A DNA stretch of 32,000 nt. Origin: Propionibacterium ruminifibrarum (GTDB taxonomy: Bacteria > Actinomycetota > Actinomycetes > Propionibacteriales > Propionibacteriaceae). The notes under the pieces were generated by a model. It searched no databases, was not told the origin of the DNA, and saw nothing but the letters and a program-made list of their open reading frames with translations. Positions 1 to 13,476 of the stretch are shown here, piece by piece. The stretch covers positions 30,001 to 62,000 of the forward strand of contig NZ_OMOH01000005.1 in assembly GCF_900289195.1 (NCBI RefSeq), given 5' to 3'. Position 1 is the first letter of the stretch, and every line of letters begins with the position of its first letter. A program made the translations under genes and the position numbers.

Positions 1-1905
1 ATCACCGCCCAGCTCGGCCGCGCCGACGCCGTGATCACCATCCACGGCGGCACCAGCCGCGAGGACCGCAAGGCCGCCCAGGAGCAGTTCACCCACAGTC
101 CCGAGACCGTGGTGCTGCTGGCCACCGACGCCGCAGGCGAGGGCCTCAACCTGCAACGCGCCCACCTCATGGTGAACTACGACCTGCCGTGGAACCCCAA
201 CCGCATCGAACAACGCTTCGGACGCATCCACCGCATCGGCCAGCGCGAGGTCTGCCACCTGTGGAACCTGGTGGCCTCCGACACCCGCGAGGGCGACGTG
301 TTCAACCGCCTGCTCAGCAAGATCGACCAGATGGGCAAGGCCTACGACGGCAACCTGTTCAACGTGCTGGGGGAGCGCGACGCCTTCCAGGAGCGCTCAC
401 TGCGCGATCTGCTCATCGAGGCCATCCGCTACGGCGACCAGCCCGAGGTCAAGGCCAGGCTGGGCAAGATCATCGACGCCGGGGTCTCGGCCGGCCTGGG
501 CGAGATGATACGCGAACGGGCCCTGCACCCCCAGATGTTCAGCGCCCTCGACCTGGACGCGGTACGGGCCCGCATGGAGCTGGCCAGGGAACGACGCCTG
601 CAACCCGGCTACATCGCCGCCTTCTTCCTGTCCGCATTCGAGCGGCTCGGCGGCCGCATCCGACGGCGCGAGAGCGGCCGCTACCAGATCACCCGCGTCC
701 CCGAGCGCCTCGTGGGCATCGCGCGGCGCGCCAACCGGTGGGCGCCGGTCGCGGACTCCTACGAACGCGTCACCTTCGAACTGGAGCGGGTCAGGGTCGA
801 CGGGCGCCCCACCGCCTCCCTCATCGCCCCCGGCCATCCGCTGCTGGGCGCCGTGATCGAGGCCACCATCGCCGACCTCGGCGAGGCCCTGTCCGCCGGC
901 ACCGTCCTGGTGGACCGCCGCAGCACCCAGGCCGAGACGCCCATGCTCATGTACACCGTCGAGCAGCGCATCCACAACGCCACATCGAAGGCCGACACCG
1001 TCTCACATCACTTCGACTACCCGCTCCTGGCCCGCGACGGCACGGTCACCGTCTCACCGGCCCCGCCCTACCTCGACTACGAGTCCCCGCGCGCGGGCGA
1101 ACGTGAGGCCATCGCAGCGGTGATTCGCGGCGAGTGGGTGCGTCAGAGCCACGACAAGGCGGTGCGGGCACACGCCTACCGCGAGGGGCTCTTGCCCAGG
1201 ATGGAAGAGGTCAGGGCCCGGCTGGAGGCCGAGGCGGCCCGCACCCGGGTGCAGGTCAAGGACCGGCTGCTGGCCGAGGTCAACCACTGGGACGCCGAGT
1301 ACAACCGCCTCGACGCCCTGGAGCGCTCCGGGGTCATCGGCCGGCTGCGGGCCGAGACCGCGCTGGCGAGGGCCCGCCAGCTCGACGACCGGCTCGACCG
1401 GCGCCTTCACGAACTCGACCAGGTGACGAATCTCGTCGCCGTGCCCTCGGTGATCCGCGGCACGGCACTCATCGTCCCCTCCCGCATGCTCGCACCCAGC
1501 CCCGGCGTGTTCGCCCACGAGACCGAGCAGGTGGAACGCCGCGCCGTCGAGGCGGTGCTCGCCGCGGAACGCGCCCTGGGGCGTACGCCGGTGGAGATGC
1601 CCCGCAACAATCCCGGCTACGACATCCGCTCCATCGACCAGGCCGGACGCACCCACTACATCGAGGTGAAGGGCCGCATCCACGGCGCCGAGACCTTCAC
1701 GATCACCACCAACGAGGTCACCTTCGCCCAGACCCAGGGCGACCGCCACCGGCTGGCGCTGGTCGAGGTCTCACCCGACGGCCCCGGGCATGACCGGCTC
1801 CGCTACGTGACGCAGGCCTTCTCACACATCGAACCGTCCGCCACCACCCGCTCCTACAACGAGGAGTGGCGCGGCTACTGGACCAGGGGCGGCCCGCCCC
1901 GATGA
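1..1905 (+). CDS. SNF2-family helicase, C-terminal part (5' end lies outside the window), with a C-terminal DUF3883-type PD-(D/E)xK nuclease-like domain
   Basis: Frame 1 is open from base 1 (ITAQLGRADA precedes the tracked GTG at 31). Helicase motif V is LLATDAAGEGLNLQ and motif VI is QRFGRIHRIGQ. The C-terminal GYDIRS...HYIEVKGR...FTITTNEVTFAQ...RLALVEV matches the DUF3883 signature. Confidence 0.85.
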   Translation: MTAQLGRADAVITIHGGTSREDRKAAQEQFTHSPETVVLLATDAAGEGLNLQRAHLMVNYDLPWNPNRIEQRFGRIHRIGQREVCHLWNLVASDTREGDVFNRLLSKIDQMGKAYDGNLFNVLGERDAFQERSLRDLLIEAIRYGDQPEVKARLGKIIDAGVSAGLGEMIRERALHPQMFSALDLDAVRARMELARERRLQPGYIAAFFLSAFERLGGRIRRRESGRYQITRVPERLVGIARRANRWAPVADSYERVTFELERVRVDGRPTASLIAPGHPLLGAVIEATIADLGEALSAGTVLVDRRSTQAETPMLMYTVEQRIHNATSKADTVSHHFDYPLLARDGTVTVSPAPPYLDYESPRAGEREAIAAVIRGEWVRQSHDKAVRAHAYREGLLPRMEEVRARLEAEAARTRVQVKDRLLAEVNHWDAEYNRLDALERSGVIGRLRAETALARARQLDDRLDRRLHELDQVTNLVAVPSVIRGTALIVPSRMLAPSPGVFAHETEQVERRAVEAVLAAERALGRTPVEMPRNNPGYDIRSIDQAGRTHYIEVKGRIHGAETFTITTNEVTFAQTQGDRHRLALVEVSPDGPGHDRLRYVTQAFSHIEPSATTRSYNEEWRGYWTRGGPPR

Positions 1906-1948: not shown

Positions 1949-4717
1949 GTGACCAAGAAGAAACTCATCGAGACCTCCCTGCCGCTGGAGGCCATCAACG
2001 CCGCCTCCGCCCGCGAGAAGTCGATTCGTCACGGGCACCCGTCCACCCTGCACCTGTACTGGTCCCGCAAACCATTGGCCACCGCCCGTGCCGTGCTGTT
2101 CGCCCAACTCGTCGACGACCCCGCCTCCCGGCCCGAGGAATTCCCCACGACCGCGGAGCAGGATGCCGAGCGGGCGAGACTGCACGCGCTCATGGAGAAG
2201 CTGGTGGTCTGGGAGAACAGCTGGGACGAAGGTCTGCTGCGCCAGGCTCGTGACGAGATCCGCAAGAGCAACGACGGCCGGCTCCCGCCGGTGCTCGACC
2301 CGTTCGCCGGTGGCGGTTCCATCCCGCTGGAGGCGCAGCGGCTCGGCCTGGAGGCCCACGCCAGCGACCTCAACCCCCTCGCCGTGCTCATCAACAAGGC
2401 GCTCATCGAGATCCCGCCCAAGTTCGCAGGAATGGCCCCGGTCAACCCGGACGCCCGCGACCAGAGCCTCTACCAGCGCGCGGAGGGGCTGGCCGCGGAC
2501 GTGCGCTACTACGGGCAGTGGATGCGCGACGAGGCGGAGCGCCGCATCGGTCACCTCTACCCGAAGGTCACCGCCCCCGACGGAACCGAGCACACCGTCA
2601 TCGCTTGGAAATGGGCGCGCACCGTCAAGAGTCCCAACCCGGCCAACCCCATCGAGGTGCCCCTGGTGAACTCGTGGTGGCTCAGCAAGAAGAAGGGCAA
2701 AGAGGCTTGGGTGCGCGCCACAGTGCGGGGCGGACAGGTGCACTACGAGGTAGTGCACAGCGCCGATGGGCCACGCGGCGAGGACGAGTGGACTATCAAG
2801 CATGGGAAAGGTGCGAAAGCAGTTGGTGATGGAACTCCCTTCAGCTACGACTACATCCGAGAAGAGGGGCTCAATGGTCGAATAGGATCCCATCTCATCG
2901 GTATTGTGGCAGAAGGGCAGCGGGGGCGTTTGTATTTCTCGCCATCGCAGGATCATGTTGCTGCGGCGCAGGTGGCACGTCCTGATATCAGTGTAGATGG
3001 CCAGATCGCAACCAATCCCAGGTGGTTCTCGCCTCCGGCCTATGGGAAGAAATACTTCTCCGAACTTTTCACGAACCGCCAGCTCGTGGCCATGACGACC
3101 CTCAGTGACCTCGTCGCTGAGGCGCGGGAGCGAGTAGTGAATGATGCTCTGCCTAAGGGGTTGCCAACAGGAGACCGTCTTGAGGCTGGTGGCAATGGCG
3201 CCCAAGCCTACGCCGATGCGGTGGCTACGTACCTTGCGCTAGGGGTGAGTCGTACTGTCGACTACTGCAATGCCATGTGTAGCTGGCATTCTGGGCGAGA
3301 TACGATCCGTAACATTTTTTCAAGGCAAGCCATTCCTATGGTCTGGGATTACGCCGAGGTGAATCCTTTTTCGGGTTCTTCGGGTAATTTTCTTGGTCAA
3401 GTTGAATGGGTTGTCAAAGCTCTCGAGTGTGTTCCAGCATCTGCCTGTGGCACTGCTGCACAAATCAGTGCTGTGGAGCGTGACTACAGTGGCCTCGTTG
3501 TCTCGACGGATCCGCCCTACTACGACAACATCGGTTACTCTGATTTGTCGGATTTCTTCTACGTTTGGCTGCGCCGCTCACTCAGGGACATTCATCCGAC
3601 GGTTGTCAGCACGATGCTCACCCCCAAGGCCGACGAACTCGTCGCCAATCCGTACCGTCACGACGGCAAGGAAGGGGCGGAACGGTTCTTCATCGACGGC
3701 TTCAACTCCGTCTTCGCTCGCGTCCGCCAAGGCGACAACCAAGCGGTGCCTATGACGGTGTACTACGCCTACAAACAGCAGGACGCGGAGGCCGATGGTA
3801 CCTCGTCCACCGGCTGGCACACCCTTCTTGACGGGCTCATCAAGGCCGGCTGGGAGATCACCGCCACGTGGCCGATGCGTAGCGAACTGACAAATCGGAT
3901 GCTCTCTCAGGGCACCAATGCTCTGGCGTCCTCGATCGTTCTGGCCTGCCGCCCCCGCCCCGTCGATGCGGAGTCCACCACCCGCCGGGCGTTCGTGGCT
4001 CGCCTCAAATCTGAACTGCCGGGGGCACTGCGCACGCTCATGCAGGGCGCCATCGCTCCGGTGGATCTGGCGCAGGCCGCCATCGGCCCCGGCATCTCGG
4101 TGTTCTCCCGGTATGCGCGGGTGCGTGAGGCGGACGGCTCCGACATGAGCGTGAAGGACGCGTTGCTGCTGATCAACGCAACCCTCGACGAGGTGCTCGG
4201 TGAGCAGGAGTCCGACTTCGACCCCGACACCCGTTTCGCCGTCAGGTGGTACCGCAGCTACGGCTGGGCCACCGAGAGCTCGGGCATGGCCGACCAGCTC
4301 GCCCGCGCCTCGGACACCTCCATCGGGGCGCTGGAACGCGGCGGAATCTTCGAAGCCAAGGGCGGCAAGGCCCGGCTGCTGCCGCCGGCCGAGCTGCAGG
4401 ACGCCTGGAACCCCGCGTCCGACGAACGCCTGAGCGTCTGGGAGGCCACGGTGCGCCTGGCCGCGGTCATGGACGATCAGGGAGCCGACGCGGTGGCCCA
4501 ACTACTGGCCGAGGCGCGGGACCACGTGAACCTCGACGCCGTCAAGGAACTGGGCTTCCTGCTGTTCCACGAGGCCGAGAAGAAGAACCAGGCCAAGGAC
4601 GCGCTGCTGTTCAACGGCCTCGTCAGCGCCTGGGGCGACATAGCGGAGCAGGCCCGCCGCATCGACCCGAGCTCCCGATCGGCACAGGCGGCGTTCGACT
4701 TCAACGAGGAAGAGTAA
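1949..4717 (+). CDS. DUF1156-family DNA methyltransferase (amino-methyltransferase type with DPPY catalytic motif)
   Basis: 922-aa ORF with a GTG start 43 nt after the helicase stop. N-terminal LIETSLPLEAINAASAREKSIRHGHPSTLHLYWSRKPL is the DUF1156 signature. SAM-binding motif I is LDPFAGGGSIPLEA. Catalytic motif IV is STDPPYY (DPPY at nt 3509-3520). Confidence 0.9.
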   Translation: MTKKKLIETSLPLEAINAASAREKSIRHGHPSTLHLYWSRKPLATARAVLFAQLVDDPASRPEEFPTTAEQDAERARLHALMEKLVVWENSWDEGLLRQARDEIRKSNDGRLPPVLDPFAGGGSIPLEAQRLGLEAHASDLNPLAVLINKALIEIPPKFAGMAPVNPDARDQSLYQRAEGLAADVRYYGQWMRDEAERRIGHLYPKVTAPDGTEHTVIAWKWARTVKSPNPANPIEVPLVNSWWLSKKKGKEAWVRATVRGGQVHYEVVHSADGPRGEDEWTIKHGKGAKAVGDGTPFSYDYIREEGLNGRIGSHLIGIVAEGQRGRLYFSPSQDHVAAAQVARPDISVDGQIATNPRWFSPPAYGKKYFSELFTNRQLVAMTTLSDLVAEARERVVNDALPKGLPTGDRLEAGGNGAQAYADAVATYLALGVSRTVDYCNAMCSWHSGRDTIRNIFSRQAIPMVWDYAEVNPFSGSSGNFLGQVEWVVKALECVPASACGTAAQISAVERDYSGLVVSTDPPYYDNIGYSDLSDFFYVWLRRSLRDIHPTVVSTMLTPKADELVANPYRHDGKEGAERFFIDGFNSVFARVRQGDNQAVPMTVYYAYKQQDAEADGTSSTGWHTLLDGLIKAGWEITATWPMRSELTNRMLSQGTNALASSIVLACRPRPVDAESTTRRAFVARLKSELPGALRTLMQGAIAPVDLAQAAIGPGISVFSRYARVREADGSDMSVKDALLLINATLDEVLGEQESDFDPDTRFAVRWYRSYGWATESSGMADQLARASDTSIGALERGGIFEAKGGKARLLPPAELQDAWNPASDERLSVWEATVRLAAVMDDQGADAVAQLLAEARDHVNLDAVKELGFLLFHEAEKKNQAKDALLFNGLVSAWGDIAEQARRIDPSSRSAQAAFDFNEEE

Positions 4718-4720
4718 GCC

Positions 4721-5551
4721 ATGGCCACGAAGCAGTCCCAGCCCCCACGTGGCCAAAAGGATGGCCCCGGCGCGGCGACCGCGTCCGCGGCCTCGTCCGG
4801 GGCTTACGTGCCCAAGGCTACCACCCCGGGTGACGCTTGGACCAGTCCGGTGGTTCCGTCCGATGCCTCGGATGGATCGTCCTCGGCTCCAGTTCCGGTC
4901 GGCATGCTGTTCCGACTGTTGAGCACAGAACGTATGGCCACCTATGCTGCCGAGTGCGCAGAGGACATGGAGCAGGCTCTGCGCCTTTACGCGTGGAACA
5001 CCGCGGTCTCCGCAGCCCTATGGGGAAGCTTCAACATTCTTGAGGTCACGCTGCGGAACGCTGTCGATCGTCAGCTGGCTGAACTTGCAGGGCGCACGGA
5101 CTGGTGGCGCGGGGAGAACCTGCTGCGCGATCAGGAAAGCCGTATTGCTCAGGATGCGGTGAGGGCGGCGAAGCGAACACACTCCGACCTCGAGATCCAG
5201 CCCGGGCACACCGTGGCAGAACTGACTCTTGGCTTCTGGGTCGGACTGCTCGCCAACAGGTATCACCAGCGGCTGTGGGTGCCCGCTCTTCATCGAGCCT
5301 TCCCCTACTGGCACGAAACGCGTAGGGAGCTGCATCGCAGGCTCGAGTCGCTGCGCAAGCTTCGTAACCGAGTTGCCCACCACGAACCGATCTTTGCCCG
5401 AAAACTAGTGGTAGACCATGACCAGTTGCTCGAAATTCTCGAAGGAATCGCCCCAGAGGCGGCAGCATGGGTTCGGCAGAACTCTCGCGTCCCGGACGTG
5501 CTCAGCCGACGCGCCCAGATTATTGCAGGCGCTGACAGTACCACCTTCTAG
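4721..5551 (+). CDS. Abi_2 / AbiD-AbiF-like abortive-infection protein (HEPN fold)
   Basis: LRKLRNRVAHHEPIF (RNxxAH HEPN motif, nt 5363-5380) plus N-terminal LRLYAWNTAVSAALWGSFNILEVTLRNAV are typical of the Abi_2 family. ATG 4721 lies 3 nt after the methylase stop and has a GAGGA Shine-Dalgarno about 10 nt upstream. The recognisable domain only begins near the alternative ATG at 4904 (MLFRLLSTER), so the start is ambiguous. Confidence 0.7.
   Translation: MATKQSQPPRGQKDGPGAATASAASSGAYVPKATTPGDAWTSPVVPSDASDGSSSAPVPVGMLFRLLSTERMATYAAECAEDMEQALRLYAWNTAVSAALWGSFNILEVTLRNAVDRQLAELAGRTDWWRGENLLRDQESRIAQDAVRAAKRTHSDLEIQPGHTVAELTLGFWVGLLANRYHQRLWVPALHRAFPYWHETRRELHRRLESLRKLRNRVAHHEPIFARKLVVDHDQLLEILEGIAPEAAAWVRQNSRVPDVLSRRAQIIAGADSTTF
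4761..4820 (+). repeat. Junction repeat copy A (hairpin-forming, GC-rich)
   Basis: atGgccccggcgcggcgaccgcGTCCgcggcctcgtccggggctTacgtG... aligns without gaps to 6691-6750 at about 50 of 60 positions. The outer 7-bp stem is gccccgg/ccggggc, and an inner stem flanks the variable centre. Confidence 0.8.
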
Positions 5552-5581
5552 AGGACAACGATGGCGATGAACAACCGAGAT
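5542..5581 (+). repeat. Direct repeat copy 1 (Abi stop, RBS and codons 1-7 MAMNNRD)
   Basis: cacCttctagAGgacaacgatggcgatgaacaaccgagat matches 7452-7491 at 37 of 40 positions. Weaker similarity extends about 12 nt further upstream. Confidence 0.9.
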
Positions 5582-6676
5582 AAAGCGCGGCGTGATGGTG
5601 CAGCAAGCCGCCATTCTGCCCCAGGTCTGACGCCGTTCCCGGCCTTCGCGGAATCGGTCAGTGCTGGTGACGGTGAACTCGTGGAGCAGGTGTCGGCTCT
5701 GATCGACCAGGCTCAAGCGTTCGCTGCGGCGCAGGCGAACGCGACCTTGACCCTGCGGAACTGGTACATCGGGCGCTTGATTGACGTAGCCGTGCTGCGC
5801 GAGGGCCGCGCAGGGCACGATCAAGAACTTGTTGCGTCACTGGCGCAACAATTGACCTCAAGGTACGGGCGCGGCTATGACCGGACAAACCTGTACCGGA
5901 TGGTGCGATTCTCCCAACAGTTCACCGATCCAGAACGTGTTGCGTCGCTGGCGCAACATGTCAGTTGGACTCACTTCCGCGAGCTGCTCCCACTCGGCTC
6001 CGATGAGGCGCGCATCTTCTACGTGCAGGAGACTATCGATCGCCGACTCAGCGTCCGGGAGCTGCGCCACGCCATCTCCCGCAAGGCTTTCGAGCGCCGC
6101 GAGATCGCCGACTCACAGATTCCCGAAGGGTCAGGAACGCCACTGGACGCGTTCCGCGACCCGATGCTGCTCGACATGCTCGGTCTCGCGGACACGTTCC
6201 TGGAGCGCGACCTCGAAGCCGCCCTGCGTCATGACATGGAGGCGTTCCTGCTGGAAGCCGGCCGCGGGTGGGCGTTCGTTGAACGGCAGAAGCGCATGAC
6301 CTTCGACGGCGATGACTACTTCCTCGACCTGCTGTTCTACTCAAGGCCACTGCATCGGTTGATTGCGGTTGAGCTGAAGGTCGGAAAATTCAAGCCCAGT
6401 TATCAAGGGCAGATGAACTTCTATCTGAAGTGGCTCGACAGGTACGAACGGCAGGCTGACGAGAACCCGCCCATTGGCCTGATCCTGTGCACCGAGGCGA
6501 GCCGGGACCAGATCGAGTTGCTTGAGTTGCACAAGGACGGGATTGTCGTCGCCGAGTACTGGACGACGCTGCCGCCCAAGGCCGAGCTCCAGGCCCGGAT
6601 CGCCCAGATCTACCGGGAGGCCCAGGAGCGGATCGCCCGGCGGCAGCTCACGGCGCCGGAGGCCAGCGATGAGTAA
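5561..6676 (+). CDS. DUF1016 / YhcG-like PD-(D/E)xK nuclease domain protein
   Basis: N-terminal helical region ANATLTLRNWYIGRLI. C-terminal nuclease core YFLDLLFYSRPLHRLIAVELKVGKFKPSYQGQMNFYLKWLD (D...ExK). The first 7 codons (MAMNNRD) and the RBS are a copy of the DUF499 gene start. Confidence 0.85.
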   Translation: MAMNNRDKARRDGAASRHSAPGLTPFPAFAESVSAGDGELVEQVSALIDQAQAFAAAQANATLTLRNWYIGRLIDVAVLREGRAGHDQELVASLAQQLTSRYGRGYDRTNLYRMVRFSQQFTDPERVASLAQHVSWTHFRELLPLGSDEARIFYVQETIDRRLSVRELRHAISRKAFERREIADSQIPEGSGTPLDAFRDPMLLDMLGLADTFLERDLEAALRHDMEAFLLEAGRGWAFVERQKRMTFDGDDYFLDLLFYSRPLHRLIAVELKVGKFKPSYQGQMNFYLKWLDRYERQADENPPIGLILCTEASRDQIELLELHKDGIVVAEYWTTLPPKAELQARIAQIYREAQERIARRQLTAPEASDE

Positions 6677-6690
6677 CCCCACATACAACG

Positions 6691-6750
6691 ATTGCCCCGG
6701 CGCGGCGACCGCTGGAGCGGCCTCGTCCGGGGCTCACGTCGACAATGCTA
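6691..6750 (+). repeat. Junction repeat copy B
   Basis: atTgccccggcgcggcgaccgcTGGAgcggcctcgtccggggctCacgtC...; see copy A. It begins 15 nt after the DUF1016 stop. Confidence 0.8.
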
Positions 6751-6767
6751 TAGGGGCCAGCAAACCG
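6749..6767 (+). repeat. Left inverted repeat bracketing the mazEF module
   Basis: The reverse complement of tataggggccagcaaaccg matches cggtttgctggccctata at 7395-7412, with a single 1-nt indel (gggg versus ccc). Confidence 0.8.
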
Positions 6768-6821
6768 CGTCGGGCCGGGTGGGGTGGGGGATCGGTAAAC
6801 CGACAGGGATACACTCAAGGT

Positions 6822-7070
6822 ATGACTTCGTTGACCACTATCAAGGTGTCCACGGGCACCAGGGACCGGCTGCGCGAGGCCTCCCGCGCCGCGGGCATCT
6901 CTCAGGCTGCGCTCATCGAGCAGATGCTCGACGCGCGCGAGGAGGCCGCCTTCTGGGAGGCCCTCGATGCCGCGCCCCCGTACACCGACGAGGAGCGGGA
7001 GGAGTTCCGTCGCGGCGAGGCGGCCTCGTTGGCGGATGCGGCGCGCCTGTTGGAGGATGAGGAGCGGTGA
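6822..7070 (+). CDS. Ribbon-helix-helix type antitoxin, partner of the MazF/PemK toxin
   Basis: 82-aa acidic protein. N-terminal TTIKVSTGTRDRLREASRAAGISQAALIEQML looks like an RHH beta-strand plus two helices. Its stop overlaps the toxin start (GTGA at 7067-7070). An alternative upstream ATG at 6669 has GGAGG 6 nt upstream and would add a 51-aa N-terminal extension, so the start is uncertain. Confidence 0.7.
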   Translation: MTSLTTIKVSTGTRDRLREASRAAGISQAALIEQMLDAREEAAFWEALDAAPPYTDEEREEFRRGEAASLADAARLLEDEER

Positions 7071-7381
7071 CGCCTCTGCCCCATCCGGGCGACGTGGCGT
7101 GGCTTGACATGTCCCCGACCATCGGGCGGGAGCAGCGGGGCCACCGCCCCTATCTCGTGCTCTCCGATGCCCGGCTCCACCGGGCGCGACAGCTGGTGAT
7201 CGGGGTGCCGCTCACGACGCGCAACAGTCCGATCCCCACGCGCGTCGCCGTCGGCGAGGGGTCGTACGCCATCGCGGAACAACCCACGACGTTCTCGATG
7301 GAGAGGATCACCAGGGTGGAGGCCCGCGGCCTCGACACCGCCGAGGTGCGGCGCGTCATCGTTCGGCTGCTCGGGGGATGA
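7067..7381 (+). CDS. mazF: MazF/PemK-family type II toxin (endoribonuclease)
   Basis: 104 aa. PGDVAWLDMSPTIGREQRGHRPYLVLS ... VIGVPLTTR is the typical PemK/MazF N-terminal SH3-like signature. There is a 4-nt overlap with the upstream antitoxin. Confidence 0.85.
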   Translation: MTPLPHPGDVAWLDMSPTIGREQRGHRPYLVLSDARLHRARQLVIGVPLTTRNSPIPTRVAVGEGSYAIAEQPTTFSMERITRVEARGLDTAEVRRVIVRLLGG

Positions 7382-7394
7382 ACCTCCTTGAGGT

Positions 7395-7412
7395 CGGTTT
7401 GCTGGCCCTATA
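7395..7412 (+). repeat. Right inverted repeat bracketing the mazEF module
   Basis: cggtttgctggccctata, 14 nt after the mazF stop; see the left repeat. Confidence 0.8.
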
Positions 7413-7451
7413 CAAGCATCACCCGGGACGTCGTCACCGGGACTGAAGCAT

Positions 7452-7491
7452 CACGTTCTAGGAGACAACGATGGCGATGAACAACCGAGAT
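7452..7491 (+). repeat. Direct repeat copy 2 (RBS and codons 1-7 of the DUF499 ATPase gene)
   Basis: cacGttctagGAgacaacgatggcgatgaacaaccgagat; see copy 1. Confidence 0.9.
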
Positions 7492-10400
7492 CGAGTGGGC
7501 AGGGCCTTCGACCTGCTCTCCGAGGGTCTCCACGACCTGGTGGACGAGGTGATGACCAAGACCTACAACTCATCGCAGTGGCCTGACGCGTGGGCCGAGG
7601 AGGATGCCCGGCGTCGGGGTGGCCCCGTGAGGACCATGACCAAGCAGGACGTCCAAGTGCAGCTTCGCGCCATCACCGAACGCGGCTACGAGTTCAAGGA
7701 CGTGCTGTCCCGGGCTCAGCAGAGCTTCGCCTCCGAACTGCGCGAGACCCGCAACAAGTGGGCGCACAACGAGCCGTTCAGCTCCGACGACACCGTCCGC
7801 GCCCTCGACACCATCGAACGGCTCCTCGAAGCAGCGGGATCCACCGACTCGGCCGCCGACGTGCGCAAACTGCGCACCGACCTGCAACGCACCGTCTACG
7901 AGGAACAGACCCGCAAGCAGGCCAAGAAGGCCACCACGGTGTCCCTCGAACCTGGGGCCGGGCTGAAACCCTGGCGCGAGGTGATAAGGCCCCACGACGA
8001 CGTGGCCAGGGGCGAGTTCACCGCCTCCGAGTTCGCCGCCGACCTGCACTTGGTGCACACCGGACAGGCCACCAGCCCGGAGTACGGCGACCCGGTGGAG
8101 TTCTTCTCCCGCACCTACCTCACCGAGGGCCTGCGCGATCTGCTGTCCCGGGCCCTGCGCCGCCTGGATGGCGACGGCAACGCCAGCCCGGTGGTGAACC
8201 TTCAGACCAACTTCGGCGGCGGCAAGACCCACTCCATGCTCGCCCTCTACCACCTGTTCTCCGGAACCCCGGCGCAGCGCCTCCCGCAGGACGTGCAGGA
8301 ACTCGTCGCCGAGGTCGGCAACCCCGACCTGGCGGCGCTCAACGTCAGGCGGGTCGCCCTGGTCGGCACATACCTGAAGGCGGGATCGCCGCAGGTCAAA
8401 CCGGACGGCACCCAGGTGCACACCCTGTGGGGCGAGCTGGCATGGCAGCTCGGCGGGCGCGAGGCCTATGACATCGTCGCCGACGACGACCGGGCGGGCA
8501 CCAGCCCCGGCGAGGCGCTGCGAAGGCTGATCCAGGCCTACGCCCCGGCGCTCATCCTCATCGACGAGTGGGTGGCCTACGCCCGCCAGTTGGTCACCGA
8601 CCAGGAACTCCCCGCCGGCTCCTTCGACACCCAGTTCACCTTCGCCCAGTCCCTGACCGAGGTGGTGCGGTCGGTCCCGGGGGCCATGCTCGTGGTCTCC
8701 ATCCCCGCCTCCGACAGCGGCGACCGGGGAAGCGACATCGAGATCGGCGGGGCCAACGGGCAGCTCGCCCTCGACCGCCTCCAGAACGTCATCCGCAGGG
8801 TGGCCGACCAGTGGAGGCCCTCCAGCCGGGACGAGTCCTTCGAGATCGTCCGCCGACGCCTGTTCCAGGCCCCGGACGCCGCAGGACTCACCTACATCTC
8901 GGCAGTGGCCCGCACCTTCGCCACCATGTACCGGAACAACTCGGCGCTGTTCCCCCGGGACGCGGCGACACCGAACGACGACTACGAGAAACGCATCCGC
9001 GCCTCGTACCCCCTGCACCCCGAACTGCTGGACCGGCTGTACGAGGACTGGTCCGCGTTGGAACGGTTCCAGCGCACCCGCGGGGTGCTGAAACTGGTGT
9101 CGTCCATCGTCCATGAGCTGTGGGCCTCGAACGACACGTCCCCGCTGATCCTGCCCGGCAATGTGCCGCTGGACGCCACGACGGTGAACACCGATCTGAC
9201 CCAGTACCTGGAGGACCAGTGGAAGCCGATCATCGACTCCGACATCGACGGCGCCAGCTCGACGGCCCAGCGGATCGACCTGGACCGTCCCAGTCTGGGG
9301 CAGCGGTTCGTGACACAGCGCATCGCCCGCACCATCTTCATGGGGGCGGCGCCCCGCAGCCGGAGTGCCCGCAAGGGGCTGGACAAGCAGTACGTGTGGC
9401 TCGGCACCGCCGTGCCCGGCGACGTGCTGGGCAACTTTGGTAGCGCCATCGAGCAGCTGGCCCAGCGCTCCACGTACTTCTACGAGGAGCAGGGCCACTA
9501 CTGGTTCGACACCCAACCGTCCGTCACCAAGACCGCCAGCGACTACGCCGAGAGGCTGCGCGAGGACGTCGAGACGGTGTGGAACGAGATCACCAGGCGG
9601 CTCCGCGGCGAGGAACGCAGCCGCGCCGAGTTCGACCGGGTGCACGTGGCCCCCGAATCCAGCGCCGACATCCCCGACCTGGAGGACACGCGGCTGGTGA
9701 TCGCGCACCCCAGGCACAGCGTCCGCAGGCAGGATGGACCCGACTCGGAGGCCTTCCAGTGGGTGCACGAGGCGGTCGAGACGAAGGGGGCCGGGCAGCG
9801 CATCCACCGCAACACGCTGATCTTCCTGCTGGCCGATTCGGGCCAGCTGGAGAGCCTGGAGTCCGCGACGCGCACCTACCTGGGCTGGAAGCAGGTGCAG
9901 GCGACCAGTGAGACCTTGAACCTCACGGCCCAGCAGCACAAACAGGCCGACGAGTGGGTGAGTCGTCTGGACCAGACCGTCACCGACCGGATCCGCGACA
10001 CCTTCGTGTGGGCGCTGTACCCCGAGCAATTCGACCCGACCAAACCCTTCGACGTGGTGTCGAGCAGGATCCTCGACTCCGGCACACGCTCCCTCGCCGA
10101 ACGGGTGAGCACGAAACTCGTACGCGAGGAACAGCTGATCACCCAGCTGGGCGCGGCCAGCCTGGGGGACGCGCTGCACCGGGAACTGGGGGCGCTGTGG
10201 CAGGACAGGGGCGAGATCACGGCCGAGGAACTGTGGGGCTACTTCACCCGGTACACCTACATGCCGAGGCTGGCCAGCCGGGACGTGCTCGACAACGCCA
10301 TCAAGCAGTCACTGACCGCCGTGCTTGTCGAGAACGAACGCTTCGCGATCGCCACCGGCAAGGACGAGGAAACGGGCCGCTACCGCGGCCTGCTCATCCC

Positions 10401-10872
10401 GCCCGACCCCAACGCCACGCTTCAGGTCACCGACGGCACGCTGCTCGTCGCAATCGAGCGCGCCCAGCAGCAGGTCGATGCGGAACAGGCCGATGCCGCC
10501 CAACCCGCCGGAACCAGTGTGGCAACGGATGCCGGTCAGACGGCTGCGGGTGGTTCAGCCGACTACGTGTGGGCCAGCGGCATACCCGCGGCAACGGGGA
10601 GCGAACAGTCCGGTGCTGAATCGGAACTGGAGGCCGTGCTCGGTCGTTTCTTCGGGTCGGTCAGGATCAACTCCGACCGCTACAACCGCGACATCGGCAA
10701 CATCACCCGCGAGGTCATCGACCGGCTGGCCGGCTCCGGTGCCCAGCTGGAAATCACCATCGACATTCAGGCCATCAAGAAGGAAGGATTCACCGAGTCC
10801 GAGGTGCGTACCATCAGCGAGAATGCGCGGGTGCTGAAGTTTGACCCCGATTCGGGCTTCGAGCAGGACTGA
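7471..10872 (+). CDS. DUF499-family P-loop ATPase with N-terminal Swt1-like HEPN domain
   Basis: 1133 aa. HEPN motif ETRNKWAHNEPF (nt 7750-7767). Walker A is NFGGGKTHSML and Walker B is ALILIDEWVAY. C-terminal FFGSVRINSDRYNRDIGNITREVIDRL...ENARVLKF is typical of DUF499-type ATPases. Confidence 0.85.
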   Translation: MAMNNRDRVGRAFDLLSEGLHDLVDEVMTKTYNSSQWPDAWAEEDARRRGGPVRTMTKQDVQVQLRAITERGYEFKDVLSRAQQSFASELRETRNKWAHNEPFSSDDTVRALDTIERLLEAAGSTDSAADVRKLRTDLQRTVYEEQTRKQAKKATTVSLEPGAGLKPWREVIRPHDDVARGEFTASEFAADLHLVHTGQATSPEYGDPVEFFSRTYLTEGLRDLLSRALRRLDGDGNASPVVNLQTNFGGGKTHSMLALYHLFSGTPAQRLPQDVQELVAEVGNPDLAALNVRRVALVGTYLKAGSPQVKPDGTQVHTLWGELAWQLGGREAYDIVADDDRAGTSPGEALRRLIQAYAPALILIDEWVAYARQLVTDQELPAGSFDTQFTFAQSLTEVVRSVPGAMLVVSIPASDSGDRGSDIEIGGANGQLALDRLQNVIRRVADQWRPSSRDESFEIVRRRLFQAPDAAGLTYISAVARTFATMYRNNSALFPRDAATPNDDYEKRIRASYPLHPELLDRLYEDWSALERFQRTRGVLKLVSSIVHELWASNDTSPLILPGNVPLDATTVNTDLTQYLEDQWKPIIDSDIDGASSTAQRIDLDRPSLGQRFVTQRIARTIFMGAAPRSRSARKGLDKQYVWLGTAVPGDVLGNFGSAIEQLAQRSTYFYEEQGHYWFDTQPSVTKTASDYAERLREDVETVWNEITRRLRGEERSRAEFDRVHVAPESSADIPDLEDTRLVIAHPRHSVRRQDGPDSEAFQWVHEAVETKGAGQRIHRNTLIFLLADSGQLESLESATRTYLGWKQVQATSETLNLTAQQHKQADEWVSRLDQTVTDRIRDTFVWALYPEQFDPTKPFDVVSSRILDSGTRSLAERVSTKLVREEQLITQLGAASLGDALHRELGALWQDRGEITAEELWGYFTRYTYMPRLASRDVLDNAIKQSLTAVLVENERFAIATGKDEETGRYRGLLIPPDPNATLQVTDGTLLVAIERAQQQVDAEQADAAQPAGTSVATDAGQTAAGGSADYVWASGIPAATGSEQSGAESELEAVLGRFFGSVRINSDRYNRDIGNITREVIDRLAGSGAQLEITIDIQAIKKEGFTESEVRTISENARVLKFDPDSGFEQD

Positions 10873-10914
10873 ACTAAATTAAGGCTGAAATCAGAGATGC
10901 TGCTGACAGGGAGT

Positions 10915-10932
10915 AAAACCATTTTTGGTTTT
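10915..10932 (+). terminator. Weak AU-rich hairpin plus T-rich tail after the DUF499 gene
   Basis: aaaacca-tttt-tggtttt followed by gtgtattgtttc, 43 nt after the stop codon. The stem has only 2 G:C pairs. Confidence 0.35.
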
Positions 10933-11735
10933 GTGTATTGTTTCTGATGTGCAGGCTGGGGTCACATTCGAAGAAGTTTTCACCCTTGCCGCGTGGAAGG
11001 AATGGTTGCCATCTATGTGTTAGCTCGGATGGGGACCGAAGCGATCTGTTATGCTTCAAGGGACCGGTGATTAGGATCTTGCGTAGTGGGAAGGCTACAC
11101 GGGGATGGTTTGCAGACTGATAGGGCACCAGGATGTGCTTGACCCCGATTCGTTACGTGAGGAACCCAGCCGTTGTGAAACTCTCCTGTGCTCAGAAAGA
11201 AAAGGAAGAAGAGTTTCGACTAGTCATCAAAACTAGTGTTCATGATGGATTCGGGCTTGACGTCTTGAAAATCCTGAATGTGTTACTACGTTTTGATCCA
11301 CTGGCATCGTAAATCCGGTTAGCTGTACATTTTCTTGACGCATTTCAAAGTGACATTTTACCAATCCGATGCTTAGTGTCCTGGGTTTTCGATTCTCTGG
11401 CATGTCTAACTTCATACAGATAAATGCCGCTACTTCTGCTAAACTGGTCTGTATATCAGTCACACATCTCAATCGATTTTCCATAAGAGCGAACTCTATC
11501 ATAGAGTGATAAAGCGCCTCCGGGGTGCATGTCAGATCAAGGGCGCGTTATGTGTGAAAAGACTGGGTTGTAGTAAGCTCAGTCTGAGTGTGTGAGGACA
11601 ACTAAAGCAGGACATGGCGGGTGGGAACTATCGGTGCTGAATCCAAGGCCTGAGCGGTTGTGAACTCAACAAGACAGTTTGAATACTGCTTGCGGGAAAA
11701 GGGATTGGGCTTCACTGGAAACGCATAAAGTGAAA

Positions 11736-11778
11736 GAATAGACGCTATCATGATAGCGGAGTACTTCGGCGTCTATTC
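11736..11778. repeat. Nested palindrome in the non-coding part of the AT-rich island
   Basis: The 10-bp arms gaatagacgc (11736-11745) and gcgtctattc (11769-11778) enclose a perfect 14-bp palindrome gctatcatgatagc (11744-11757). The palindrome shares 2 nt with the left arm, so the two pairings compete. Confidence 0.7.
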
Positions 11779-11854
11779 GCGGAGTGATACAAGTAAAGTT
11801 GCTAAAATCTGTTCTATGGTGCTCCTCCGATGTTGCCCTCGCCAAGACTGATCG

Positions 11855-13111
11855 ATGTTTTCTGCTATCGTTCCGAGTATGAAAGGTCATCCACGCATGC
11901 CTCCTTACGGATCTGCACGGGATCTCCCATCAGTCAAGGAGATAGAACAGCAAATAGCAGCATTCAAGAAGGTGATGTTCTTTTCGCGTGATAAACGGAG
12001 GCGGCTAGAGCAGTTAGAAAACAAGCATCGACATATAATAGAAACCGTTGACACTTTCTATGACTTGCTCGGGGCGCGCAACTGGGTTTTCACTGATGAT
12101 CTCAACTTAGATGAGATTCAAAAAGTCGTGGCTGGCTCTGATTCGCAGGTGGCGGAAAAGCGTCTTATTGAGTATTACCAGAAAACTGGACGAATCTCAT
12201 CTCTACTTCGTCAGCTCAGCCGATTTGACGAGATGCAGAAGCGTCTTCCCCTGCTACAGAAGGCGCTGGCTGATTATGAAGCGGGTCGCTACTACAGCAC
12301 CGTTCTTGTCATACTTTCAATGATGGATGGTTCCGTCAATGACCAGGACACGGCACAACGCAGAGGACTGCATGCACGTTCGCCCGAAGATATGATGGCC
12401 TGGGATAGCGTCGTCGGGCATCATCTTGGGCTGGGGCATGCTCACAAATCCTTCGTTAAAGCGTATTTCAAGACAGATGAAACCGAAATTACTGAGCTGG
12501 CTCGTAATGGAATCATGCACGGCACTTTGGTGAACTATGACAACGTAGTAGTCGCAACAAAAGCTTGGAATCGTCTTTTTGCAGTTGCTGACTGGGCTGA
12601 TGCGCGGAAGCGACAAAAACGACCTGTTGAACCAGCGCCCTCGTATAGAGAATTAATGACACGTTGGTGTAAAATCCAGTCTAACAAGACTAAGATTGAA
12701 CAGTGGCAGCCGTATGAGTATGATCCAAACTTACCGCATGAAGATCCCGCTGAAGTTGCCATGGTGTGCGCAGACTTTCTTGAGCGATGGAGTAAGCGCC
12801 AATGGGCGCCGATGGGTGAGTACTTTATAAAACTCGTGAACCCCCAGCGGCCCCCCGGCCAACTTGCGCGAGAAGCCAGGGATCTTTACGAGCAGTTCAA
12901 TCTTGACGAATGGAAGATCCTTAGAGTGCGACACGAGGCCGCTGCCGTCGCGTATACTGATGTGCAGCTCATAGTGAATTCCAGGATTTACCTGGCTGAT
13001 CTACGTTGGATTCATGTTGACGGTAATGAGAAAACTGCCATGGAATGGGAACCTGGACGTTGGGTGCTGTCACCGTATGGGCCAAATAAATTCCTCAGTA
13101 TCGACGATTAA
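11855..13111 (+). CDS. Hypothetical protein (418 aa) with a HEPN-like Rx4H motif; orphan gene of the AT-rich island
   Basis: This is the only long ORF in the island, and its low-GC codon usage is consistent with the island. The pattern LQKALADYEAGRYYSTVLVILSMMDG ... ELARNGIMHG (R217-x4-H222, nt 12503-12520) resembles a HEPN four-helix bundle. The N-terminus is predicted coiled-coil-like, and the C-terminal ~150 aa is an unrecognised globular region. The start is uncertain (ATGs at 11855, 11879, 11897). Confidence 0.6.
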   Translation: MFSAIVPSMKGHPRMPPYGSARDLPSVKEIEQQIAAFKKVMFFSRDKRRRLEQLENKHRHIIETVDTFYDLLGARNWVFTDDLNLDEIQKVVAGSDSQVAEKRLIEYYQKTGRISSLLRQLSRFDEMQKRLPLLQKALADYEAGRYYSTVLVILSMMDGSVNDQDTAQRRGLHARSPEDMMAWDSVVGHHLGLGHAHKSFVKAYFKTDETEITELARNGIMHGTLVNYDNVVVATKAWNRLFAVADWADARKRQKRPVEPAPSYRELMTRWCKIQSNKTKIEQWQPYEYDPNLPHEDPAEVAMVCADFLERWSKRQWAPMGEYFIKLVNPQRPPGQLAREARDLYEQFNLDEWKILRVRHEAAAVAYTDVQLIVNSRIYLADLRWIHVDGNEKTAMEWEPGRWVLSPYGPNKFLSIDD

Positions 13112-13476
13112 AGTTATTCATGGTGCCCGCGGATGAGGTATAGTATCGCGACACTTCGAGTGAAGGCTTCTGCTGATAAGGTTGCTAGTGTCGCGAGTCG
13201 TTAGTTTTGATGGTTTGGGGTCAGGGAAGATCTCGCCGTGAGGAATTCTCTGGTTCCTGTTTTAGTGTTAAATGGTTATGGTTGGGGTTGCTGTAGTTAT
13301 GGGCGGGCTGTCATTGACTTGCACTGGGCCTGCGATGAGGGATTGGGGCCGTGCTGCTCGCGATTGGACGGGTTCAGATGCGGGTCTCATGCGCTCCATT
13401 CATCAGCGTGTCGGAGCGTGACGTCGTACTCGTTGTCGGAAGGCCGCCCCCGACATATACATGTTAGATTGTATGT

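Follow-up and report, generated by a model that had tools for sequence, protein, structure and literature searches.

Three accessory modules at the methylase-ATPase junction of an Hma operon in Propionibacterium ruminifibrarum, and the junction scars of their probable assembly

The nesting of defence-type genes inside methylase-ATPase-helicase operons is already established for Hma (helicase-methylase-ATPase), BREX, DISARM and type I restriction-modification (R-M) systems. For Hma, Payne et al. 2024 (10.1101/2024.01.29.577857) reported embedded genes in 931 of 1,485 systems (62.7%), with 376 cassette types; 22.8% of the embedded genes were known defence systems (PD-T4-5 being listed as embedded once only), the PADLOC 'PDC' candidates were derived from such genes, and the origin of the embedding was left open. 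A later survey (NAR 2026, PMC12839542), in which the Hma loci are renamed type-1 DUF499-centred BREX-related (BR) systems and the fusion of HEPN to DUF499 is noted, catalogued PD-(D/E)xK and HEPN genes inside the core loci as recurrent auxiliary or backup effectors; it does not name DUF1016/YhcG, Abi2 or Swt1, and does not analyse insertion junctions. Comparable arrangements are PrrC in the EcoprrI type I R-M system and BrxU in the pEFER BREX system, each a nested and independent effector that is presumed to step in as a backup under inhibition of its host system. Here we describe an Hma operon in a 32,000-nt stretch of the Propionibacterium ruminifibrarum genome (assembly GCF_900289195.1, contig NZ_OMOH01000005.1, positions 30,001 to 62,000 of the forward strand; GC content ~70%), hereafter the window, by whose own numbering all coordinates are given. 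We consider it likely (at a probability of roughly 0.78) that the junction between the methylase gene (hmaB) and the ATPase gene (hmaC) of this operon gained three self-contained accessory modules (an Abi2-type HEPN protein, a DUF1016/YhcG nuclease and a MazE-like/MazF toxin-antitoxin pair) through at least three separate events. Since embedding in Hma operons has already been published, the interpretation given in a preliminary description of this DNA (nested defence genes at the methylase-ATPase junction) is right but not new; what is new here is the account of how the stack was built, as read from junction scars. Payne et al. 2024 is a census, and a term search of it retrieved neither such scars nor an Abi2 remnant nor a toxin-antitoxin insertion bounded by inverted repeats.

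Judged by its gene content, the triad is an Hma ('type-1 BREX-related') anti-phage operon, whose products HmaABC would carry out a methylation-based restriction of phage. The 3' part of hmaA (31..1905, + strand; the 5' end is truncated by the window start) encodes an SNF2-type helicase with a C-terminal NOV_C nuclease-like domain (PADLOC 4.5e-173, covering model positions 543-1159 of 1176; Pfam Helicase_C and NOV_C), hmaB (1949..4717, +) a DUF1156 N6-adenine methyltransferase of 922 aa (PADLOC E=0, 1106 bits; Pfam DUF1156 2.7e-29), and hmaC (7471..10872, +) a protein of 1133 aa in which an N-terminal Swt1-like HEPN domain (HEPN_Swt1 1.8e-34; motif RNKWAH from residue 94) is fused to a DUF499 AAA+ ATPase (1.5e-32; PADLOC 4.7e-271, 900 bits), as is typical of the HEPN-fused type 1. 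The locus thus resembles the type-1 BR systems of PMC12839542 in its HEPN-DUF499 ATPase, in its DUF1156-type methyltransferase with a nested target-recognition domain and in its helicase with a C-terminal nuclease, as well as in carrying standalone HEPN and PD-(D/E)xK genes within the core locus. PrrC differs from the situation described here in that it has been shown to be coupled, physically as well as functionally, to its host enzyme, and in that it is a single effector, against three stacked modules in the window.

The interval between hmaB and hmaC (4718-7470, 2,753 nt) contains four ORFs, all on the + strand (Abi2, DUF1016, MazE-like and MazF), in the positions and in the three modules proposed by the preliminary description. 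The spacing, which it had portrayed as tight or overlapping, was correctly given for the 3-nt and 9-nt spacers and for the GTGA overlap, but two long spacers had been omitted: 145 nt from the DUF1016 stop (6676) to the antitoxin start (6822), and 89 nt from the MazF stop (7381) to hmaC (7471). The domain assignments withstood HMM searches, with Abi_2 scoring marginally and RHH_10 below its cutoff. The GC content at third codon positions (GC3) is lower in Abi2 (0.70) and DUF1016 (0.77) than in hmaA (0.93) and hmaC (0.90). Given the 3-nt and 9-nt spacers it is plausible that the expression of Abi2 and DUF1016 is tied to the operon transcript, from which both are probably read; a promoter and terminator consensus scan found no + strand site in the gap, with counts at or below the shuffled expectation, and is a weak test that is uninformative for actinobacterial promoters.

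By scanning one genome per species, we recovered 59 related loci (denoted by L-numbers), 51 of which show the hmaB-hmaC junction. The content of the junction varies among them: hmaB abuts hmaC in 23 loci (mostly Microbacterium), a 110-195-nt non-coding gap is found in 3 (L032, L045, L048), DUF1016 only in 22 (one decayed, L024), Abi2 only in one (L028), Abi2 with DUF1016 in one (L025), and DUF1016 with the toxin-antitoxin pair in one (L022). The last, from P. australiense, is the closest genome locus (HmaC 98% identical), and a further Abi2-only case beyond the 51 was identified in Cutibacterium equinum (L163). As the gap content varies from locus to locus, the invariable gene set that would have spoken for a fixed core is absent, and the proposed hotspot for nested defence genes at this junction is supported. 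Six independent metagenome contigs have the same gene set, and each module has orthologues in related loci (in other genera at 55-89% identity), which argues that the arrangement is not due to chance. In the sense of Payne et al. 2024 all four ORFs are embedded, as they lie in the same orientation between genes of the host system; their content varies among orthologous loci, and their families also occur outside the host system (L164, L165; L066, L068; and the decayed L162). The likeness to the published Hma-embedded systems thus extends over the HmaA/B/C host, the same-orientation nesting of defence-type genes and the variable content.

The junction carries two pairs of direct repeats that mark how its parts were joined. 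The first copy of D1 (4757..4820, +; 64 nt) lies in the coding sequence of the Abi2 N-terminal leader and is 83% identical to the second copy at 6687-6750 (self-blastn E 1e-13). The first copy of D3 (5537..5581, +; 45 nt, 89% identical to the second copy at 7447-7491) runs through the last Abi2 codons, the stop TAG, a ribosome-binding site (RBS), ATGGCGATGAACAAC (codons 1-5 of hmaC) and CGAGAT into DUF1016, so that DUF1016 and hmaC each have their RBS and first seven codons (MAMNNRD) within a copy of D3. Around the second copies, we recognised the halves of a degraded Abi2 gene (psi-Abi2). The left half (6669..6750, +) contains D1 copy 2 and its ATG overlaps the DUF1016 stop (ATGAGTAA); its GC3 of 0.63 argues that it is non-coding in the window. 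The right half (7413..7461, +), colinear with L025 9947-10000, ends in the ancestral Abi2 stop (TAG, 7459-7461), which falls inside the hmaC Shine-Dalgarno AGGAG (7460-7464). The same geometry is seen in the Abi2-only loci (L028, L163), where Abi2 ends in ...ACCTTC TAG GAGACAAC.. ATG(hmaC) with its stop within the hmaC Shine-Dalgarno, and the DUF1016-hmaC spacer of L025 is a 42-codon ORF (MGNPTYNDCPGAATAGAASSGAYAGNATASPRVVTGTEDNTF) in which the Abi2 leader is fused in frame to the last Abi2 codons. By these alignments, D1 copy 2 and D3 copy 2 of the window are the two halves of an in-frame Abi2 deletion remnant.

The start of DUF1016 is chimeric. Its native form is TAG-gtc-ATG CCS GGC AGY CGA GAT (MPGSRD), and the MAMNNRD start (ATGGCGATGAACAAC-CGAGAT) is found only where an intact Abi2 lies upstream (the window and L025); in a six-way junction alignment the parent sequence switches at the 7-nt microhomology CCGAGAT. 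That the chimeric start is restricted to loci with an upstream Abi2 suggests that the intact Abi2 came from an Abi2-type Hma locus and brought the hmaC translation start with it. A fusion of a DUF1016-type with an Abi2-type Hma locus (in the order opposite to that of the window) is fossilised in L162 (GCA_039812525.1, 5600-8260), where an hmaB 3' remnant is followed by DUF1016, a spacer with a small ORF (sORF), a 41-codon chimera (hmaC codons 1-17, codons ~80-90 and the hmaB C-terminus), Abi2 and an hmaC pseudogene. The hmaB and hmaC remnants of this locus are both pseudogenes (a stop interrupts hmaC at codon 47), DUF1016 and Abi2 have stayed intact, and a ParD-like/zeta toxin pair lies 3' and a Fic gene 5'; by this gene content the passengers of L162 have outlived their host system.

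Exchange between loci is also recorded in the identity profile of the window against L022, which is a mosaic: hmaA is 96-99% identical and the tract from 6200 to the end of hmaC 94-100%, the centre of hmaB 64-84% and the DUF1016 N-domain 74-88%, and 4714-5626 is without counterpart. We conclude that this mosaic reflects allelic exchange between Hma loci. The centre of hmaB (2600-3600; 64-84% nucleotide identity to L022, flanks 91-99%) has a GC content of 0.565, below that of the rest of the gene, and across loci HmaB identity does not follow that of HmaC (Spearman rho -0.06); on these figures it looks like a target-recognition region swapped between Hma loci. Within DUF1016, the N-domain (5561-6200) is 78% and the remainder (6200-6676) 99% identical to L022, with an apparent recombination breakpoint near 6200.

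Outside the window, the DUF1016-hmaC spacers (compared in L001-L009, L021, L024-L026, L034, L039-L042, L049, L055 and L058) mostly consist of a 12-42-codon ORF whose ATG overlaps the DUF1016 stop and whose TAG lies in the hmaC Shine-Dalgarno, 9 nt before the ATG. Shorter remnants of 12-21 codons are found in ~16 of 19 DUF1016 loci, with the ATGA start and the TAG end retained, and among the spacer length variants 5 keep the frame versus 3 that break it (P ~0.09); the sORF may descend from Abi2 and have been kept as a bridge for translational coupling. Over the hmaC RBS and first 10 codons (7455-7500) the DNA is 100% identical between genera (including L001, L006, L034, L040, L049 and L058) whose HmaC proteins are just ~80% identical, which would point either to unusual constraint on the translation start or to a hot spot of recombination.

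The toxin-antitoxin pair differs from its neighbours in how it is bounded. The MazE-like antitoxin (6822..7070, +; 82 aa, putatively RHH-type) scores 21.1 bits against RHH_10 (cutoff 27) and matches M. tuberculosis MazE7 (6a6x) at 1.1e-5; its homologues measure 73-81 aa and its GC3 is 0.89 (versus 0.63 for the upstream extension), both of which speak for the 82-aa start and against the 133-aa version annotated on some metagenome contigs. The MazF/PemK toxin (7067..7381, +; 104 aa) has the expected fold (Pfam PemK_toxin PF02452 2.5e-15, 57 bits; E. coli MazF structure 1ub4 4e-9), and its GTG start overlaps the stop of the antitoxin gene (GTGA, 7067-7070), as befits an upstream, translationally coupled cognate antitoxin. 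Relative to L025, the window and L022 carry a ~660-nt extra segment (window 4457-6750 and 7416-10866 align to L025 7662-9944 and 9947-13399), which splits the Abi2 remnant and has terminal inverted repeats at its exact boundaries: TATAGGGGCCAGCAAACCG on the left (6749..6767, +), whose outer TA dinucleotide is possibly a target duplication, and CGGTTTGCTGGCCCTATA on the right (7395..7412, +), which match perfectly over a core of 14 nt (18 nt if one indel is allowed). In L025 the empty site reads AATGCTA^CGGCATCACC; TA (up to CTATA) flanks both sides and is indistinguishable from the TATA ends of the repeats. As the repeats are absent from five homologous toxin-antitoxin loci, we rejected the idea that they are an operator or terminator intrinsic to the family.

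The cassette ends have no second copy in the window or in the 59 related loci, and no transposase gene was found in the window. A metagenome scan with the 17-nt end retrieved 89 stretches, in about half of which it forms the outer unit of ~128-nt palindromic arrays (GSCCAGCAAACCG units at 19-20-nt spacing), this outer 17-nt unit being identical to the terminal repeat of the cassette; the polarity of the arrays is opposite to that of a simple miniature inverted-repeat transposable element (MITE). This suggests that the cassette ends derive from a dispersed repeat family. The array unit may also be written GGCCAGCAAACCG and the cassette ends TATAGGGCCAGCAAACCG. Among these high-GC metagenome contigs, arrays at 3887-4014 and 5444-5571 of L116 flank a DUF4143/AAA_14 ATPase gene on both sides, a similar ~1.5-kb interval is flanked by arrays in L078, L104, L153 and L160, and an array also occurs in L124; at least 5 different outer flanks were counted. 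The cassette is like MITE-like and IS630/Tc1-type elements in its 18-nt terminal repeats at the boundaries, possible TA duplication and empty site, and unlike MITE-like elements in having no transposase, a single copy per genome segment, an ambiguous duplication and reversed array polarity. With described MazEF pairs (1ub4, 6a6x) it shares the PemK-fold toxin, the small overlapping upstream antitoxin and a promoter-proximal repeat region, but differs from them in its bounding by 18-nt inverted repeats, its location inside a defence operon and the lack of a PADLOC model match.

A -10-like hexamer (TACACT, 6810..6815, +) lies 6 nt 5' of the antitoxin ATG as a leaderless-type promoter motif, and TACACT/TACATT-N6-ATG also precedes 60-67%-identical toxin-antitoxin pairs in unrelated contexts (L066, L068, L069, L071, L072). 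We regard it as a promoter-like element of the actinobacterial leaderless type belonging to the pair itself, and MazEF is likely autoregulated from it. These features also lend themselves to a different reading of the pair, in which MazE/MazF would play no part in defence and would be a selfish cassette, serving addiction or stabilisation, that reached a permissive, non-coding remnant by transposition. Such a cassette would account for the youngest insertion of the junction (the window and L022 are 98-100% identical here, and L025 lacks it), for bounds resembling those of a mobile element, for the promoter-like motif of its own, for the lack of any PADLOC match and for the finding that the closest homologues (60-67% identity) sit in ordinary or housekeeping chromosomal contexts (e.g. 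L066, L068). However, MazF-type toxins and other toxin-antitoxin pairs are recurrent in defence islands and some of them mediate abortive infection, the position within a defence operon is the same as that of recognised embedded systems, and addiction and defence roles are not mutually exclusive. We give the purely selfish reading a substantial chance, somewhat short of even.

DUF1016/YhcG (5561..6676, +) is a 371-aa PD-(D/E)xK nuclease with both expected domains (DUF1016_N 1.4e-33, YhcG_C 1.2e-43), corresponding to the PADLOC candidate PDC-S02 (3.4e-107) and carrying a D...ELK pattern (DGDDYFLDLLFYSRPLHRLIAVELK, residues 249-273, read from the sequence); a PDB sequence search detected no solved relative. 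Its N-domain is 65-85% and its C-domain 90-99% identical to orthologues. A 33-nt direct repeat (91%) lies in the part encoding the N-domain (5818-5850 and 5926-5958) and encodes ELVASLAQQ / ERVASLAQH. The distribution of the gene invites the view that the inserted genes, DUF1016 in particular, belong to this Hma subtype as integral auxiliary subunits, namely additional nuclease or RNase effectors that act alongside HmaABC and would not be independent passengers. All 24 loci with an HmaC at least 78% identical to that of the window contain DUF1016, which is better conserved than HmaB (80-89% versus 62-75% amino-acid identity), and diverges in step with HmaC as strongly as HmaA does (Spearman rho 0.63 and 0.62, respectively); furthermore, the small ORF that bridges its stop to the hmaC Shine-Dalgarno in most DUF1016 loci suggests translational coupling, and the NAR 2026 survey interprets nucleases of this kind as recurring effectors with an auxiliary or backup role. 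DUF1016 accordingly behaves, in its distribution and divergence, as a clade-stable fourth gene that is co-inherited with HmaC and quasi-core there, and not as a sporadic passenger. An integral subunit would, on the other hand, hardly be expected to be missing from 23 related loci without insert (e.g. Microbacterium, with HmaC 77% identical) and from L028 and L163, or to persist intact, together with Abi2, in L162 despite the decay of hmaB and hmaC; we hold this view to be unlikely but not negligible.

Abi2 (4721..5551, +; 276 aa) is an Abi_2/PD-T4-5-like HEPN protein according to both Pfam (Abi_2, 26.9 bits against a cutoff of 25.6) and PADLOC (PD-T4-5 2.5e-18, AbiD 3e-6). Its Rx4-6H motif reads RNRVAHH from residue 215, and among 19 homologues R215, N216, R217, H221, E222 and P223 are invariant and H220 nearly so. 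A conserved N-terminal leader with the motif GPGAATASAASSGAYV is present in 16 diverged homologues, and the subfamily motif NCPGAATASAASSGAY, encoded by D1, characterises proteins of ~260 aa and is wanting in shorter homologues; the Abi2 of L025 has no internal Met, so that the upstream start is used. In L025 (P0014; 8740-8770) the stop has changed from TAG to TTG, extending the ORF by 8 codons, and the motif is RNRVAYH instead of RNRVAHH; this copy may be in early decay. Outside Hma the family occurs solo in Leifsonia (L164) and directly 5' of type I hsdM-hsdS in Streptomonospora (L165). The window protein resembles the single-gene PD-T4-5 and AbiD-AbiF proteins in its Abi_2 domain, its Rx4-6H motif and its solo or hsdM/S-adjacent relatives, and is set apart from them by the additional N-terminal motif of its subfamily and by the marginal Pfam similarity. 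A PDB sequence search with Abi2 returned spurious DARPin low-complexity matches only. A derivation of Abi2 by duplication of the N-terminal HEPN of HmaC was considered and rejected, as BLASTP covers the motif region alone (16/44 identities, E 2e-4); by this comparison the two are related folds and not a recent duplication.

The repeats themselves could be taken for recombination sites of an integron- or dif-module-like, site-specific cassette system operating at the hmaB-hmaC junction, as the [D1...D3] slot occurs twice with near-equal lengths (717 and 697 nt) and as D1 DNA can form a GC-rich hairpin (CCCCGG...CCGGGG) for which L028 (9259-9310) shows one compensatory pair (CCCCAG...CTGGGG). 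We rejected this reading as highly improbable: D1 encodes the conserved Abi2 N-terminal motif shared by the 16 diverged homologues, D3 is the Abi2 3' end plus the hmaC start, the second copies of both are explained by the in-frame deletion remnant, and no integrase or recombinase gene was found in the window. The folding tests count both against such sites and against a structured RNA formed by D1 and the hmaC leader, which was rejected as well: Rfam gave no match at E<=1, RNAalifold on 16 spacers detected essentially no covariation, and single-sequence folds were no better than shuffles (z -0.1 to -0.5). A reading of the ORFs as frames left open by chance in a 70%-GC genome, with spurious domain calls (high-GC DNA yields many long spurious ORFs, and the Abi_2 and RHH matches are weak), is already refuted by the strong HMM scores of DUF1016 and MazF, the 891 Abi2 homologues with invariant motif residues, the 55-89% identical orthologues in other genera and the coding-type GC3 of 0.70-0.89.

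For the acquisition of the three modules in separate events, we propose the following history. The DUF1016/YhcG nuclease would be an old resident, inherited with the Hma core in one actinobacterial clade. Abi2 would originally have been located directly 5' of hmaC, with its stop codon inside the hmaC Shine-Dalgarno, and one copy would have decayed in frame, leaving the short remnant now found between DUF1016 and hmaC; another Abi2 copy, still intact, would have entered from a different Hma locus, bringing along the hmaC RBS and first codons, and its joining to DUF1016 at CCGAGAT would have generated the two direct-repeat pairs and the MAMNNRD N-terminus. MazE-like/MazF would be a ~660-nt insertion into the Abi2 remnant, equipped with its 18-nt inverted repeats and promoter-like motif. 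In such exchanges of passengers between loci, the hma core genes would serve as homology arms; D3 x D3 recombination could regenerate an Abi2-only locus of the L028/L163 type, and D1/D3 could mediate loss. Functionally, the modules would serve as independent or backup effectors once Hma restriction is bypassed, Abi2 as a HEPN RNase, DUF1016 as a PD-(D/E)xK DNase and MazF as an mRNA interferase, with growth arrest or degradation as the outcome; the HEPN of HmaC is a candidate second-line or suicide effector as well.

This account builds directly on the observed domain identities, between-locus variability, repeat structure, junction chimerism, empty site and identity mosaic, and several points weigh against it. 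The defence function of the modules is argued from homology and context, the Abi_2 Pfam match being marginal and the RHH call below its gathering score, and MazEF pairs are often stabilising or addiction modules and not immunity. The order of events was derived by parsimony, a tandem-locus deletion would yield the same product as homology-facilitated illegitimate recombination, and two states at the toxin-antitoxin site are compatible with either polarity (insertion or deletion). Moreover, the co-divergence of DUF1016 with HmaC (rho 0.63) means that this nuclease may be functionally integrated and not independent.

Downstream of hmaC, the window contains a second variable slot. Directly after the hmaC stop lies a low-GC island (10873-13371; 48% versus ~68%) with an ORF of 418 aa (11855-13111, +) whose product is 100% identical to a P. 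ruminifibrarum protein and has no match in Pfam, PADLOC, PHROGs or NCBIfam; the same slot in P. australiense L022 (13392-17957) is occupied by Gabija (GajA 4.7e-165, GajB 9.3e-153), so that a known defence system in the sister strain stands against an uncharacterised protein in the window. The family of the 418-aa ORF has at least 683 actinobacterial members (all 'hypothetical'), and a homologue in L166 is located beside a TIR-domain gene, a HigB-like toxin and an IS3-family transposase gene. An AF2 model (pLDDT 76) displays a helical N-domain and a weakly NTF2-like C-domain (Foldseek E ~0.02-0.1 for the latter). By its position, the ORF is a candidate defence gene.

Taken together, these observations make the locus one more, and unusually dense, instance of Hma embedding (three stacked modules), whose value is that of a worked example of how embedding happens, the question left open by Payne et al. 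2024. The scars point to recombination between Hma loci (duplicated hmaC start, Abi2 remnant, L162 fusion), to allelic mosaicism of hmaB and DUF1016 and to a separate, transposon-like insertion of the toxin-antitoxin pair, and they set a clade-stable resident (DUF1016) against recent arrivals (the Abi2 copy and the toxin-antitoxin cassette); as a clade-stable Hma partner, DUF1016 deserves a functional test. Beyond this locus, we offer as a tentative and rather doubtful generalisation that the stacking of passengers in Hma operons follows a specific, readable route and not random insertion into a 'genomic sink'. Along such a route, Hma loci with different passengers would recombine with the hmaB 3' end and the near-invariant hmaC start (RBS and MAMNNRD) as arms, leaving duplicated hmaC-start scars; decayed passengers would be trimmed in frame to a short ORF that keeps its start at the upstream stop and its end in the Shine-Dalgarno, preserving coupling; and further cargo (here MazEF) would come as units bounded by inverted repeats, the 17-nt end being the outer unit of GGCCAGCAAACCG arrays (20-nt spacing), a palindromic array family that brackets other genes in related actinobacteria. 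If this were true in general, the history and the donor of embedded defence genes would be reconstructible from junction scars, by sequence alone.

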